A program made the translations under genes and the position numbers. The notes under the pieces were generated by a model, which was not told where the DNA came from, did no database searches, and was given only the letters and a program-made list of their open reading frames with translations. A stretch of DNA of 64,000 nt from Sedimentisphaerales bacterium (GTDB taxonomy: Bacteria; Planctomycetota; Phycisphaerae; Sedimentisphaerales; SM23-30). The DNA is taken from assembly GCA_963666285.1 (NCBI GenBank), contig OY762711.1; one strand, written 5' to 3'. This document shows positions 45,321-59,116 of this stretch, piece after piece. How positions within the stretch are numbered: position 1 is the stretch's first letter; each line of letters starts with the position of its first letter.

Positions 45321-47587
45321 TTAATTTTTATCATACACCCTGACATAATCAATATAATATTTATGAGGAAACAGGCTGTCATCAATACCTTTTTGACCGC
45401 CCCATGCTCCGCCAATCGCAAGGTTTAGTATTAAATAATGCGGCTTATCAAACGGCCATTCATTATCTCCGGTACCTTCATTACGAAAAGTAAAATAATG
45501 CTTATTATCAACGAATGTCTCAATCCTGTCATCATACCACTCAATTGCATATAAATGATACTTATCCATACAGGTTGGAACCTTTATAGTAGCACTCTTC
45601 TGTGTGCCGATTACATGATAATAGCTCTTACAGTGAATTGTGCCAACGATAGTCTCCGGATCATAACCAACATTTTCCATTATATCGATCTCGCCGCATT
45701 TCGGCCACCCAACCTGACCAATATTTTTCCCCAACATCCATATCGCCGGCCAGGTCCCTTTCCCTGTTGGCAGCTTTGCCCTTATCTCAAATCTACCATA
45801 AGTCCATTCTTTCTTCCCTGCAGTATGGATACTCGCTGATGTATATTCAGCATTCTCTTTGTACCCCTCTTTTCGTGCCTCAATCAGCAAACTGCCATTC
45901 TCAACACGTGTATTCTCCAGTCTCTGCCTGGTATAATATTGCTTTTCATTATTTCGGATAAAACCAACCTCATGGTTCCACTTCTCAGCATCAGGCAAGC
46001 CCTGATAGTCAAACTCATCATTCCAGCTCAACTTCCACTCAGGATCCTCCGGTTTATTGTAGCCCTTTTCATCACAATGCAATTTTGAATGCAATCTTAC
46101 TTTATTTACCGTATCCCCGCCATTTTGTAAGTAAAACCGGTTTTCCTTGACTCCGGAATCAATTCTATCTGATTTCGTATTATCTGCGGTAAAAACGGCA
46201 CTTGTTAACGGATGCCATATACCATCGATACTCTTCACCCAGCCATTACCAAAACTTGCATTGCGGATTTGCTTGGCACTTTCGCCATTACGCCTGAAAT
46301 CTTCGACAAACGAATAATACCCTTTTAATGGATCGCCAGCGGTTTTTGTCTGGAATGTAGCAAGATGCTTCCAGCCGCTCGTCTCGCTCAAACAAACAAA
46401 AGCTGAGTAAATTGTTGTGTCATTCTCTACCACAGCTTTGACTATACACCTTACAGTCTGGTTCAGCTCCCAATCAGTATAAAACATAGACTTCGCGCCC
46501 GTGCCTTCATTTCCAAACCTGCTTATTTTTACATCATCTCCGGAAAATATAACTTTAACCCGGTTTTCTTCTTGCACCTTAGCTGGATCATTCTGATCAC
46601 CCGGATCCCACACAGAGAAGATTACTACTTTTTTCCCTCCCCATAACTCCTGGATTCCAAAATAGCCGTGATTAAATCCACAAACGCAAAAGTAACTGCC
46701 TGGAACACTTTTTTCAACTGAAACTTCATTATAAAATGCCATACCTTCCGGAGCGTCATACCACAAATGAACACTGCGGGCTGCTCTAGGAAACTCATTT
46801 CCCTGGGCCAAGACATTTGTTACTATTAAAAAACATATAAACAGGAGAATAAACGTATACTTTTGTCGAGTAGGCATGTCGCCTCCTTTCATTAATTTAA
46901 CAAATTCTGAGTTTCATTATATTTTGTGCAAGGAAACGCATGCCCCTCACAGAACCGGACTTGAAGATTTCCCTCATCCGGCTCTTCATTAATGCTCACT
47001 TTGACGGCTACATAAGGCAAAGTAATGTGCCTTGTAGAAGTCTCCGATAGAAGACGCTGTGGAACGTTCATGGTTTCTTCCAGTTCAGTGCCTGGCCAAT
47101 ATCCTGTTTCGCCTTTACACATTAATGCTGACCCCTTCGAGTGCCTCAAACTTCGAAACTCAACAGGCATTACCCTGTTTACTCCTCTACTATGAGTCAG
47201 TCCGACTACCAAAATGCCATACGGCCGCGTCACGGTTTCAGCTCCTTGGCCGCTTCCTTTCGGAGCACTTCGGTTCTCCCAAGTTCCAATGCAGTCAGTT
47301 CGTTTGCCCGCTACGGACTCAGACCCCGGCTCGTCGATATATGCTCGCCGTATTTCGCATATATCGATATTGGCTTCAGGCATATGAAAACCCTGGCCCG
47401 GATGCGATAAGGAATAATTTCGGGGCTCAACACCTTCACTTGCGTTGTGGCTGACAAACTCCTTTCCCGGGGCTTCGTACAGTTCGTTACCTCTCTGCAC
47501 GCCCGGTGCTGTAATGGGCGGGTGGCTAGCCCTTACCCATGCCGGATTGGCCGGCTTGACTACATTAGCTTCGCTTGGCGCTCTCAT
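45321..47587 (-). CDS. Secreted DUF3472-like plus GH16 glycoside hydrolase, interrupted by a group II intron (exon 1 47587-47584, exon 2 46864-45321; spliced product 515 aa)
   Basis: Splicing gives ATG AAA AAG TAT = MKKYTFILLFICFLIVTNVLAQ (signal peptide); GYFGIQE..IFSVWD; GH16 motifs WPAIWML, GEIDIME, IDYVRVY. Confidence 0.88.
46865..47583 (-). mobile_element. RT-less group II intron, copy 1 (719 nt)
   Basis: 5' GAGCG (variant of GUGYG); domain V GAGCCGGATGAGGGAAATCTTCAAGTCCGGTTC at 46984-46952; domain VI with bulged A at -7 (46871); 3' end ..CTCGAC; no RT/YADD motif; identical by eye to copy 2. Confidence 0.93.
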
Positions 47588-47646
47588 ACTCTTTCCTTAC
47601 CCGGCATAACCAGATGAATTAAAAAATTAAACTTATGGCCAAAATA

Positions 47647-48795
47647 TCATTGTTTTAGCCATTCAAATGAAAATCTGTCAAAAACTATCATCTCATATGG
47701 ATGATCATTTCCTTTCTCAAATAAACAGCCCGCTGTCCCATCAGCCGTCACTGCAAGACACGAATACGCACTGGCTCCGCTATATAGCAATTTTGCGACC
47801 GGCCAGGTCTTACCATCGTCATAACTCAGCCTAACAGTCATGTTAACACGAGAACTCATACTCGCTGGATTAGAAAACAGAAGATAAGGTCGTGATTGTG
47901 AGTTATCATCATCACTCATCCACTTCACAATACTCGCCTGGCAGATTGGCTCAACCAATTCAGAATCATAAAAAGTCTCCGACCAGGTTACTCCGCCATC
48001 GTCACTGCAGCTCACCGCACGGGTCCTATTCTCCCTGAAGTAATTTCTGCTATTCAGCATAATCCTTCCGTCCGACAATTCGACAACCTGACACTCATTT
48101 AACTTATCTGCCCGGGTTGAACCTCCCAGCTTCCAGCTGTTACCATGGTCATCGGAATAACTAACATGAGAATAATACTTCTTGCTACCCTTCTCTATAT
48201 GATCGCAAGGTATCACCAATCTCCCATTAAACCGCCCGCTGCATAGCTGAATCCCGCAACCAGGCCCGGTTGCATACCAGCTCCAGTTTTCCTGCTTTGT
48301 CGAACTGGTTATATCAATAGGCTTTGTCCAGGAAATACCATCATCTGAACTGTGAGACACCCAGACTGTTCTGGTCTCTTTACTGCTGCCATCTATTATC
48401 TGCCTTTCGTGGTCCGAGCCAAGGTTGCGAGTCATAAGCAACCAGATAATACCGGTATCTTCGTCTACCACCACACAAGGATTACCGCAGGTATTTTCAC
48501 CGTCTGACCAGACTATTATCTGATCTGACCATGTTTTACCATTATCTGTACTTCGCTTCAGTAAAATATCGATATTGCCGGCATCCCCTTTGTTTTCCCT
48601 GCCTTCACAAAATGCCAGGATAGTCCCTTTTGTAGTCACTCCCAAAGCCGGAATACGATAGGTATGATAGCCGCCACTGCCACTTTCGTAAACAGTGCAT
48701 ATTTCTCTCTCAAAATTACTTTCAGCCAAAACATGAAAATGACAAACCAAAAGTAATATTATAATTTTCAGTCCAAAATACATGTAATTATTCAT
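47647..48795 (-). CDS. Sialidase family protein (GH33)
   Basis: Signal peptide, YRIP motif, several Asp-boxes (STDNGKTW, SSDDGISW, SDDHGNSW, SDDGGVTW, SYDDGKTW). Confidence 0.92.
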   Translation of the reverse strand: MNNYMYFGLKIIILLLVCHFHVLAESNFEREICTVYESGSGGYHTYRIPALGVTTKGTILAFCEGRENKGDAGNIDILLKRSTDNGKTWSDQIIVWSDGENTCGNPCVVVDEDTGIIWLLMTRNLGSDHERQIIDGSSKETRTVWVSHSSDDGISWTKPIDITSSTKQENWSWYATGPGCGIQLCSGRFNGRLVIPCDHIEKGSKKYYSHVSYSDDHGNSWKLGGSTRADKLNECQVVELSDGRIMLNSRNYFRENRTRAVSCSDDGGVTWSETFYDSELVEPICQASIVKWMSDDDNSQSRPYLLFSNPASMSSRVNMTVRLSYDDGKTWPVAKLLYSGASAYSCLAVTADGTAGCLFEKGNDHPYEMIVFDRFSFEWLKQ

Positions 48796-48821
48796 ATCTA
48801 CACCTCGATAAGCTGACAGGC

Positions 48822-50542
48822 TTACTGTCTCGTATTGTTCACCTTGACTGCTTCAATTGTCATATCTTTCCATTCGGATTCAATACCGCGTAAATGATGA
48901 TCGAAAAACTGCTTTGTATATTTAATTGTCTCCGGTCCAAATCCTTGACCGTGCCCTCCGTCTTTTACGGTAATCATTGTACAGTTTATTTTTGCTTTTC
49001 TCAAAGCAGTAATAAATAATTCAGATTGATTATACGGCACCAGCGGATCTTTGGTACCATGAATTATTAAAAATGGAGGATCATCTTTAGTAATATACCG
49101 AATTGGATTCGCAGTAGCAACCTTATCCTTATTCTCTTGTATGGCTCCTCCGATAAGTTCTGATTCCGGCGAATCTGGTGCATCGTGGCTCTGGATCGAA
49201 CCTGCTTTATCCATCTGCAAAAAATCGGTCGGGCCAAAGAAATCTGCAACACATGAAACATGACTCGAAACGTCTTTATATTCTCCTAGTCCCCCATCCA
49301 TAACCGCCGCTCCACTGCTCGTACCCAGCATTGATACCAGGTGGCCGCCGGCTGATGATCCCCATACCCCTATCCTATCGCTATCTAATCCGTATTTATT
49401 TGCATTTGCCCTTATCCAGCGAATGGCAGCTTTACAGTCATGAATTTGTGCCGGCCAAACGGCATCTCCACTTAACCTGTAATTTACTGTCGCCGCGGCA
49501 TAATCTCCTGAAGCAACAAACGGTATCAGCTTTCCGACACTACTGGATTTATCTCCCGCTCTAAATGCTCCGCCATGAACATACACAATTACAGGCAAAG
49601 ACTTTTCTCCTGAATTCTTTGGAATCAGCAAATCTAAACACTGTCTTTCATGACTGTTTTTTAGATAAGGTAAGTCTTTTATGTGTAGAACATTATCGCG
49701 GTTCATCTTATACTGCATACCTCTTTCCGGCCTTTCCCTGTTTTGTTCCTGCTGGCCGAATAGCTGAGCTGCTCCCAAAAATATAACCAGAATCACGATT
49801 ATCTGTCTATTAATATCTTGTCGAGTAGGCATGTCGCCTCCTTTCATTAATTTAACAAATTCTGAGTTTCATTATATTTTGTGCAAGGAAACGCATGCCC
49901 CTCACAGAACCGGACTTGAAGATTTCCCTCATCCGGCTCTTCATTAATGCTCACTTTGACGGCTACATAAGGCAAAGTAATGTGCCTTGTAGAAGTCTCC
50001 GATAGAAGACGCTGTGGAACGTTCATGGTTTCTTCCAGTTCAGTGCCTGGCCAATATCCTGTTTCGCCTTTACACATTAATGCTGACCCCTTCGAGTGCC
50101 TCAAACTTCGAAACTCAACAGGCATTACCCTGTTTACTCCTCTACTATGAGTCAGTCCGACTACCAAAATGCCATACGGCCGCGTCACGGTTTCAGCTCC
50201 TTGGCCGCTTCCTTTCGGAGCACTTCGGTTCTCCCAAGTTCCAATGCAGTCAGTTCGTTTGCCCGCTACGGACTCAGACCCCGGCTCGTCGATATATGCT
50301 CGCCGTATTTCGCATATATCGATATTGGCTTCAGGCATATGAAAACCCTGGCCCGGATGCGATAAGGAATAATTTCGGGGCTCAACACCTTCACTTGCGT
50401 TGTGGCTGACAAACTCCTTTCCCGGGGCTTCGTACAGTTCGTTACCTCTCTGCACGCCCGGTGCTGTAATGGGCGGGTGGCTAGCCCTTACCCATGCCGG
50501 ATTGGCCGGCTTGACTACATTAGCTTCGCTTGGCGCTCTCAT
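48822..50542 (-). CDS. Secreted alpha/beta-hydrolase (BD-FAE-like esterase), interrupted by a group II intron (exon 1 50542-50539, exon 2 49819-48822; spliced product 333 aa)
   Basis: Splicing gives ATG AAA GAT ATT = MKDINRQIIVILVIFLGAAQLFG; HGGAF, GSSAGGHL, HGTKDPLVP, GGHG. Confidence 0.88.
49820..50538 (-). mobile_element. RT-less group II intron, copy 2 (719 nt)
   Basis: Same sequence as 46865-47583 (offset 2955); flanks diverge outside TATGA|AA. Confidence 0.93.
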
Positions 50543-50568
50543 AAAAACTCCCTTCATTATTCTATCGA

Positions 50569-51471
50569 TCAATCAAATTTTAAACCTGTATCTTGCCGTT
50601 TTAGTGTAATATCTCGTAAATAATGATCAAAAAATTGCCAAACCTTATCTGTCACCTCTTCTCCAAATCCTTCACCATGCCCACCACCTTCAATAGTAAC
50701 CATTATACATTCATTATTCTTATCTCGCAATGCCTTAGAAAGCAGCTCAGATTGAATATATGGTACAATGGAATCGCCGGTTCCGTGAACGATCAGAAAT
50801 GGCGGCTCATCACCATTAATATATGTCATGGGATTCGCTCCCGCAATTTTACCAACATTATCTTCGATCGGTCCGCCAAACAGCTCAACTGCTGGTGATT
50901 CATCAATTTCATACTCTACGTCAGTACCAAACTTATCCATATGAAAGAAATCTGTTGGCCCATAGAAATCAACTACACAAGATACCTTACTGGAAACATC
51001 TAAACAACATTCAGGCTCACCCTCCAACGATCTCACCCCGTTACTCGTACCTAGCATAACGGCAAGATGACCGCCTGCCGAACACCCCCATACTCCTATT
51101 CGGCTGCTGTCAATTCCATATTTCTCGGCATTGTTTCGGATCCAGCGTAACGCAGCTTTACAATCATGGATCTGTGCCGGCCATATCGCATCACTGCTAT
51201 ACCGGTAGTTAATTGACACTGCCGCATATTGGCCTGACTCCACAAATGGAACAACGATAGGCAAACCAGTAGCTTTATCACCGGTTCGATATGCTCCCCC
51301 ATGTATATATACAATAACAGGAAGCAGATCTTGTTCACGGCTTTCAGGGATCAGCAGATCCAGATTCTGCCTGCAATGACCGTTGTCAACATAGGCAATG
51401 TCCTGTAAATGCCTGACCCCGGTTTTATTAATATCATGCATGTTCTTTCTATTTATCATATACCAATTCAA
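50569..51471 (-). CDS. Alpha/beta-hydrolase (BD-FAE-like esterase), paralog of the downstream gene; start probably the ATG at 51441
   Basis: HGGAY, WPAQIHDCKAA, GCSAGGHL, HGTGDSIVP, GGHG. Confidence 0.88.
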   Translation of the reverse strand: MNWYMINRKNMHDINKTGVRHLQDIAYVDNGHCRQNLDLLIPESREQDLLPVIVYIHGGAYRTGDKATGLPIVVPFVESGQYAAVSINYRYSSDAIWPAQIHDCKAALRWIRNNAEKYGIDSSRIGVWGCSAGGHLAVMLGTSNGVRSLEGEPECCLDVSSKVSCVVDFYGPTDFFHMDKFGTDVEYEIDESPAVELFGGPIEDNVGKIAGANPMTYINGDEPPFLIVHGTGDSIVPYIQSELLSKALRDKNNECIMVTIEGGGHGEGFGEEVTDKVWQFFDHYLRDITLKRQDTGLKFD

Positions 51472-59041: not shown

Positions 59042-59116
59042 GGTGAAAGACGGGACTCGAACCCGCGACCCCCAGAACCACAATCTGGTGCTCTAGCCAG
59101 CTGAGCTACTATCACC
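59042..59116 (-). tRNA. tRNA-His (GUG); CCA not encoded
   Basis: G-1:C73 pair, D-arm GCTCAGCTGGCTAGAGC, anticodon arm CCAGA-TTGTGGT-TCTGG, T-arm GGTTCGAGTCC. Confidence 0.96.

Follow-up and report, generated by a model that had tools for sequence, protein, structure and literature searches.

Why should two identical stretches of 719 nt each lie one base inside the start codon of a different gene? The question is raised by a 64,000-nt stretch of DNA from a Sedimentisphaerales bacterium (contig OY762711.1 of assembly GCA_963666285.1), hereafter the window, which is C1:3584001-3648000 of a 6.35-Mb genome with 41% GC. The two elements occupy 46865-47583 (copy 1) and 49820-50538 (copy 2), both on the minus strand, as are all window features given below, and they are 100% identical over positions 1-719. 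A preliminary description had read them as group II introns inserted at T-ATGA^AA (the caret marks the insertion point), with a first exon-binding site (EBS1) directed against the start codon and a second (EBS2) directed against the Shine-Dalgarno (SD) sequence, and all the coordinates and motifs that it gave for the two copies proved correct. Our analysis, made from sequence alone, suggests with a probability of roughly 0.7 that they are two of eight copies of a class E/F-type group II intron that lacks an open reading frame (ORF) and retrohomes into translation-initiation regions through EBS1 and EBS2.

The ribozyme can be recognised at both ends of the element. Checked against the Rfam covariance models, each copy matches the domain I model RF02005 over its full length (47314-47550 in copy 1, model positions 1-225 of 225, 115.9 bits for a cut-off of 49) and the domain V/VI model RF00029 at 46865-46986 (55.5 bits, cut-off 40). 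Domain V (46951-46985 in copy 1) carries a 5-nt terminal loop, GAAAU, which is either GAAAU or GAAAG among the 719-nt intron and its relatives. It is followed by a long, extended domain VI (46865-46949), and in the predicted fold of the two domains (-48.4 kcal/mol, z -6.8) the branch A at 46871 is bulged and stands 7 nt from the 3' end. We set the intron ends by this bulged A, by the Rfam domain V/VI alignment and by aligning the 5' end to the GUGCG of relatives. The 3' end, ..CCUACUCGAC at 46865, coincides with the end of the Rfam alignment, and the terminal ..CGAC fits the AY boundary. The 5' terminus reads GAGCG in every copy in the genome, with A in place of U at position 2, GAGTG in a relative from a Victivallaceae metagenome-assembled genome (MAG; L048) and GUGCG or GUGUG in other relatives. 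The element contains no reverse transcriptase (RT) gene. As part of the reading given above, we consider it probable that these group II introns have a small, IIB-like ribozyme of class E/F type, a placement made from ribozyme size, the domain V loop and the domains that relatives have in their intron-encoded protein (IEP); the Rfam family name specifies no class.

Copy 1 interrupts the start of a gene for a protein with DUF3472 and glycoside hydrolase family 16 (GH16) domains and a signal-peptide-like N-terminus (exon 2, 45321-46864), and copy 2 the start of a BD-FAE esterase gene (exon 2, 48822-49819). The first intron-binding site (IBS1) reads GTATGA at site 1 (47584-47589, host ATG 47587-47585) and TTATGA at site 2 (50539-50544, host ATG 50542-50540). 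The 5' flanks run ..GTAAGGAAAGAGTATGA^ and ..GAAGGGAGTTTTTATGA^ and the 3' flanks ^AAAAGTATACG and ^AAGATATTAAT. In silico removal of the 719 nt reproduced at both host genes the natural N-termini anticipated in the preliminary description, MKKYTFILL.. (515 aa, DUF3472 and GH16) and MKDINRQII.. (333 aa, BD-FAE esterase). The ligated junctions predicted in this way are ..UAUGA + AAAAGUAUAC.. and ..UAUGA + AAGAUAUUAA.., and splicing would, as judged in silico, give an mRNA with an exact AUG-A^AA.

A census of the genome found eight full copies of the intron (99-100% identity), one 648-nt variant (89%), two full-length relatives of 1929 nt and one 3' fragment. Every full copy has TATGA^ before it and A after it, and the remaining flanks are unrelated at all eight, as had been noted for the two sites of the window. 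The sites are spread over 1.4-5.3 Mb. Six copies stand at the start of ORFs, 153-515 aa long, whose N-termini resemble signal peptides or prepilins, and two are non-genic, one in an RHS/YD-like open segment and one intergenic (ORF MKDEG, then a stop) behind a terminator-like hairpin, which precedes only this one of the eight sites. Copies lying away from an SD or a start codon were what the preliminary description held would speak against it; the two non-genic copies both have TATGA and an SD-like motif, so that the signal is present at all eight sites and a gene start at six. Its suggestion that the intron could home to gene starts generally fits the eight unrelated sites. Could the copies instead be immobile relics, carried about by duplication or recombination of host DNA and having inherited their TATGA^A? 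There is no RT gene in the intron itself, and its mobility is proposed from sequence. We regard this origin as scarcely credible, however, because such dispersed sites show no long homologous flanks beyond TATGA and an SD-like motif, the copies are nearly identical with exact boundaries at both ends, and an intact RT-encoding relative is present twice.

Heptamer repeats flank some of the sites (C1:910661-910720, 5397268-5397327, 1613510-1613559 and 5266330-5266366 / 5267086-5267120). ATTAAGA occurs three times around the junction of one full-length relative. The other full-length relative and the 648-nt variant have the same 23-nt 5' flank, and three ATTATGA repeats lie upstream of each. AGGATGA is present about four times around the intergenic copy. 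Three of the 22 sequencing runs listed contain half or more of the window. In the run that is probably the source of the assembly (X1) a contig with a loose end at 47590 joins the intron 5' end to ..GAAGGATAAAGTATAAAGGATGA-AGTATGA^, which matches none of the eight assembled sites and could mark one more insertion within the population that was sequenced. Contigs of two other runs (X3 and X4) contain the intron, but not with the flanks of the window. Among the contigs of X1, X3, X4 and X8 neither a junction spanning the intron nor a spliced form was seen, which weighs neither way on splicing, as contigs do not reveal it.

How does the intron find these sites? The EBS1 loop, UUUUCAUAU (47382-47390; copy 2, 50337-50345), caps the domain I hairpin CAGGGTTTTCATATGCCTG (47395-47377), and its UCAUA(U) pairs with (G/U)UAUGA. 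The loop is thus complementary to UAUGA, which takes in the start codon and base 1 of the second codon, and its 5' Us could pair with positions +1 to +3 of exon 2. In a consensus fold of 15 family members UUUUCAUAU forms the hairpin loop and UUCCUUA, the EBS2 segment, an unpaired internal loop; the Rfam structure agrees, and 19 of the 27 pairs in the helices bounding the two loops show compensatory change. The concern that UUCCUU might be buried in a helix is removed by both structures. The full-length relative is about 86% identical to the 719-nt intron over the first 425 nt, and the differences cluster in the two EBS loops, where AUUAUUCCUUAUC is replaced by AUUAGAAAUUAAC and GGGUUUUCAUAUGCC by GGUGAUUCUUAACAC. 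With GAUUCUUAA as its EBS1 loop, the relative is perfectly complementary over 9 bp to the junction at which it lies, UUAAGA^AUU. Across 29 family members the EBS1 duplex energy is -4.74 kcal/mol with the intron's own flank and -1.52 kcal/mol with the flanks of others, and none of 20,000 permutations was as good. Diverged relatives (ribozyme identity 70-87%) lie at CCATGA^, AAATGA^, ATATGA^, TTATGA^, TGATGA^, AAATGT^ and CCTTGA^, and their EBS1 loops keep UCAU (or ACAU, UCAA) while the remainder varies to match the flank. The covariation-supported hairpin, the switched loop of the full-length relative, the fit to the own flank and the UCAU retained at ATGA^ together strongly support a role for EBS1 as an anti-start-codon guide.

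EBS2, UUCCUUA at 47408-47414 (copy 2, 50363-50369), belongs to an internal loop of domain Id that is unpaired. It is complementary to an AAGGA-type SD 4-6 nt upstream of IBS1. At site 1 the second intron-binding site (IBS2) is the host SD, TAAGGAA (47593-47599), and forms 7 bp with it; at site 2 AAGGGAG (50548-50554) forms 6 bp, two of them G-U, through AGGGAG (50553-50548). The 16S rRNA of this genome ends ..CACCUCCUUUCU, with a 3' tail of CCUCCUUU, and EBS2 therefore contains the UCCUU core of the anti-SD. Over the eight occupied sites the best ungapped matches are 7, 7, 6, 6, 6, 6, 5 and 5 of 7 pairs. Across the 29 members the EBS2 duplex energy is -4.43 kcal/mol with the own flank against -2.56 kcal/mol with other flanks, again with none of 20,000 permutations as good. 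Of the 6259 TATGAA sites in the genome, a strict ORF rule classes 369 as probable gene starts and a lenient one 550. Measured against positions -24 to -6, the EBS2 duplex energy is -7.6 kcal/mol at the occupied sites (n=8), -4.61 at gene-start TATGAA sites (n=369) and -2.73 at non-start sites. At least six of seven EBS2 pairs are reached by 10% of all TATGAA sites, 34% of those at gene starts and 8.7% of the others.

These comparisons bear on a simpler account, in which EBS1, together with the A at +1, is all that aims the intron, the AAGGA upstream is incidental to real starts, and copies survive at such starts as they are transcribed and spliced there. EBS1 alone cannot explain why six of eight occupied sites are gene starts, since the 6259 sites open to it are gene starts in only about 6% of cases, and no copy lies at a neutral intergenic TATGAA site without an SD. 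The EBS2 energy also exceeds the gene-start background on average (resampling P 0.00075), the sites of the two non-genic copies rank within the best 1.0% and 1.4% of the non-start class, and EBS2 co-varies with the flank across the family. The enrichment is nevertheless weak among the six genic sites, four of which reach at least six pairs, and a third of TATGAA gene starts do so already. Dispensability points the same way: EBS2 is not needed for self-splicing of IIE/IIF introns in vitro, and the text available for that work suggests a role in retrohoming (Nagy et al., PMC3753933), which is accordingly where any role of EBS2 would lie here. Weighing both sides, we consider aiming by EBS1 alone unlikely.

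Other observations besides this dispensability count against targeting by the two guides together. The 3' end of IBS2 varies from -10 to -12, the spacer between IBS2 and IBS1 is 4-6 nt where perfectly pairing relatives have 0-2 nt, and two of the eight sites reach only 5 of 7 pairs. EBS2 is not of anti-SD type in 10 of 18 start-codon relatives, a pattern that also favours aiming by EBS1 alone, and two relatives with AAUCCUU (L047 and L018) pair poorly with their own sites. The EBS2 of the full-length intron, GAAAUUA, has no convincing partner in either of its flanks (-1.0). Some of the 29 members are close kin, and the permutation P values overstate their independence and with it the case. The 5' terminus is GAGCG instead of GUGYG. 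No RNA run of the organism was found among the 22 runs listed, the sole RNA run containing 6% of the sequence words of the window. A protein search with exon 2 of host gene 1 found no empty site in three same-genus genomes, where matches were only 38-47% identical, fell in the C-terminal domain and included no orthologous uninterrupted start. For the tabulation of copies, then, the proposed ATGA^A holds at all eight, while the fixed SD register of -15 to -10 does not. The description of EBS2 as an anti-SD guide gains from the unpaired loop, the covariation with the flank and the better pairing of occupied sites, and loses by the 0-2 nt drift in register, the longer spacer and the non-SD relatives. 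We hold it with moderate confidence, less firmly than the role of EBS1.

Relatives were gathered from same-order genomes (14 of 61 with a match), from genomes representing species and identified by way of the IEP (10 of 80 loci with a strong domain I match) and from metagenomes, and individual loci are cited by L numbers. Where both guides can be read, they follow the flank. L019 lies at AAGAAUA-GG-ACACGG^, with EBS1 CCGUGU and EBS2 UAUUCUU pairing with AAGAAUA; L049 at AGGUAU-CC-UGUCCC^, with EBS1 GGGACA and EBS2 AUACCU pairing with AGGUAU; and L048 at GUGCUA-G-UUAUGA^, with EBS1 UCAUAA and EBS2 UAGCAC pairing with GUGCUA. In L213, at AAGGAGUAA-UUAUGA^, EBS2 is UUACUCCUU and pairs with AAGGAGUAA. 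Counted by eye and with L199 and L142 excluded as ambiguous, 8 of the 18 distinct introns inserted at ATGN^ or TTGA^ have a UCCUU-type EBS2, as against none of 11 relatives clearly away from start codons, so that an anti-SD EBS2 is frequent, though not universal, in start-codon introns. A 5'-end pattern blind to the flank gave 94 metagenome matches, 15 of them preceded by ATGA for a chance expectation of about 0.4. The hosts named in the records are MAGs of Phycisphaerae, Pirellulales, Lentisphaeria, Victivallaceae, Melioribacteraceae and Ignavibacteriales.

The same 94 matches contain a second lineage (13 matches, among them L126, L147, L158, L171, L230, L236, L243 and L244), always after ..CGTTA^ and with the EBS1 loop UUAACG. 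Truncated or interrupted 5' intron fragments of 17-80 nt also stand directly after ..ATGA (L135, L143, L173, L175, L185, L209 and L219) and look like decayed members of the start-codon lineage.

What becomes of a host gene whose start codon has been cut off from its second codon? The 3' end of the lineage is conserved as AAGGA(A/G)N..AUAUU-AUG-YCU-ACU-CGA-C^, which supplies an SD and, 13 nt ahead of the 3' splice site, an AUG. The motif occurs in L017, L018, L020, L044-L048 and others. In copy 1 the SD is AAGGAGG (46888-46882) and the AUG lies at 46877-46875, in the 3' strand of domain VI. Insertion one base past the host ATG is what puts this AUG in the reading frame of exon 2. ORFs listed for the window at 45321-46892 (523 aa) and 48822-49847 (341 aa) run from the intron into exon 2. 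The domain VI AUG is lacking in the distant non-start-codon relatives L049, L050 and L052. Folding is predicted to pair the SD with GUUUCCUU and the AUG with CAU, and the start would be masked for as long as domain VI is formed.

The presence of an SD inside the intron raises a further alternative for EBS2, that its UCCUU pairs mainly with the domain VI SD and controls translation or folding, and is not directed at the host SD. UUCCUU is complementary to the AAGGAG near the intron's own 3' end, and that SD is conserved in the lineage. The predicted fold, however, already engages this SD with GUUUCCUU in the 5' strand of domain VI, and L017, L048, L019 and L049 keep it while their freely varying EBS2 fits the 5' flank of each instead. 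We therefore think this alternative improbable, considerably more so than aiming by EBS1 alone.

The frame set by the host ATG is also unusual. It runs without a stop through 231 codons, or 229 on another count (46892-47587; copy 2, 49847-50542), its first stop being at intron position 690 of 719, whereas 14 and 20 stops fall in the remaining two frames. From composition the chance of such a frame is 5e-6. The TAA that closes it overlaps an in-frame ATG (TAATG, 46894-46890), which is in frame with both the domain VI AUG and exon 2. The host frame contains eight stops in 432 nt of the full-length relative and nine in the 648-nt variant. L048 has 152 codons without a stop in its host frame, whose end lies 23 nt short of the IEP start. 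The frame counts against any strong claim as a single observation, because the eight copies are one sequence, with L048 as a further example. The two introns with a GAG-type 5' end (47579-47583 and 50534-50538 in the window; L048:2020) are those with long stop-free host frames. Self-splicing introns more usually have an early in-frame stop, which in group I introns, for which this has been stated, keeps ribosomes out (PMC3073962). We considered whether the frame encodes a real protein and rejected this, the frame being a translation of conserved ribozyme helices in which relatives have eight or nine stops. It is possible that the open frame instead serves translational coupling, in which ribosomes would read through the intron, melt domain VI and restart.

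The RT for such an element could be supplied by its longer relatives. The two 1929-nt introns differ at 2 positions, and each encodes a 443-aa IEP with a match to TIGR04416 (group II RT/maturase, 340 bits), Pfam RVT_1 as its only Pfam domain and no endonuclease domain. Without the 443-codon ORF about 600 nt of ribozyme remain. The start of domain IV, CACUCGAAGG.., a conserved IEP-binding region, is common to the full-length intron and retained in the ORF-less one, and mobilisation in trans fits with this. Each of the 11 introns, like the 3' fragment, points in the direction of replication-fork movement, the origin being placed near 5.72 Mb and the terminus near 2.68 Mb by cumulative GC skew. 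This fits with endonuclease-less introns using the lagging-strand template, although a bias in gene orientation could contribute.

Retrohoming through both guides would then proceed as follows. The excised lariat would be bound in trans by the 443-aa RT/maturase and would reverse-splice into single-stranded DNA at replication forks, at SD-N(4-6)-UAUGA^A. Most such places would be gene starts. In a crude set of 4175 gene starts, 49% begin ATGA, 20% have TATGA and the commonest second codon is AAA, and the target is therefore close to the typical initiation region of this genome. Harm to the host would be limited firstly by exact splicing, which would restore AUG-A^AA, and secondly by the SD and AUG of domain VI. 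On an unspliced transcript ribosomes could cross the intron in the stop-free frame, unwind the helix of domain VI and initiate anew, so that the host protein would be made with a short extension at its N-terminus.

Around the introns, a cluster of genes for secreted glycan-degrading enzymes (45321-51471) contains both copies, in the order BD-FAE esterase (uninterrupted), BD-FAE esterase (interrupted), BNR sialidase-like protein and DUF3472 plus GH16 protein (interrupted). A tRNA gene is found at 59042-59115 (Rfam RF00005, 59.9 bits).

Introns at start codons have been described before. A specialised IIB1/CL1 lineage (Avi.groEL, EcKTE56.groEL) lies in or next to initiation or termination codons as site-specific retrotransposons that use EBS-IBS pairing, and the accessible part of that account gives it an insertion of 300-700 nt close to the 5' end of domain I, CL1 RTs, proteobacterial housekeeping genes as hosts and one conserved home site per intron (PMC12584367). 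The present intron is like it in that all eight copies lie one base after ATG, six of them at true gene starts. Unlike that lineage it has a ribozyme of about 600 nt without a large 5' insertion (the domain I model match begins 33 nt downstream of the 5' end, and the whole intron is 719 nt), its hosts belong to planctomycete, lentisphaerae and ignavibacteria-type MAGs, a single intron is present at eight unrelated sites, and domain VI carries an SD and AUG. The IEP studied in the CL1 lineage has, in the same partial account, a C-terminal extension beyond RT and maturase (PMC12584367); by domain comparison, the 443-aa IEP has no domain beyond these two. IIC introns, as far as the text of the two sources extends, recognise a DNA hairpin and short IBS1 and IBS3 sequences and have no EBS2 (PMC3753933, PMC12584367). 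The present intron shares with them a generic, recurring genomic signal as target, an IEP without an endonuclease domain and many sites per genome. It differs in having two pairing guides, a translation-initiation signal as its target and a terminator-like hairpin at a single site.

The closest resemblance in the ribozyme is to the IIE/IIF introns (Cl.be.I2, Pe.th.I2 and Ge.ur.I1), which the accessible portions of the published accounts present as IIB-like, 450-700 nt long without the IEP, with a 5-nt domain V loop and EBS1 and EBS2 in domain Id (PMC3753933, PMC3552965). The intron described here has the same ribozyme size, domain V loop and location of EBS1 and EBS2, an IEP without an endonuclease domain and an IBS just upstream. 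Within those portions start-codon targeting, a domain VI SD and AUG and a stop-free host frame are not mentioned. In Thermosynechococcus elongatus, according to the part of the work accessible to us, ORF-less introns multiply beside related RT-encoding copies (PMC2882425), much as the ORF-less derivatives do in this genome, which also holds RT-encoding relatives. There the EBS diverges to reach new unique sites, whereas here the target is a common signal, and one unchanged set of EBS sequences therefore suffices for many sites. We found no description of an E/F-type start-codon lineage or of a domain VI SD and AUG in the literature searched, which excludes Michel et al. 2007 and Simon et al. 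2008.

A 2015 review of bacterial group II introns names, in its accessible text, three target specificities: homing sites, terminators and attC (PMC4424553). A bolder proposal, which we advance tentatively and at somewhat less than even odds, is that this lineage parasitises translation-initiation regions in general and represents a fourth. Its guides would imitate the initiating ribosome, EBS2 resembling the anti-SD tail of 16S rRNA and EBS1 containing the CAU of the initiator anticodon, with insertion in phase 1 after the AUG and a masked SD and AUG in domain VI. The most successful form would have purged the stops from the host frame, and the host protein would then be made whether or not the intron is spliced.

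How start and stop codons are colonised is stated to be unknown for the IIB1/CL1 lineage in the portion of that account available (PMC12584367), whereas for the intron described here an aiming rule can be read from the sequence. If the reading is right, such introns would provide a natural scaffold for targetrons directed to gene starts. They would also affect annotation, breaking the first codons of genes in many planctomycete, lentisphaerae and ignavibacteria-type MAGs. For the biology of the family it would mean that a retroelement uses a universal gene-expression signal as its landing pad, and that it renders itself harmless there by exact splicing and a translation start of its own.

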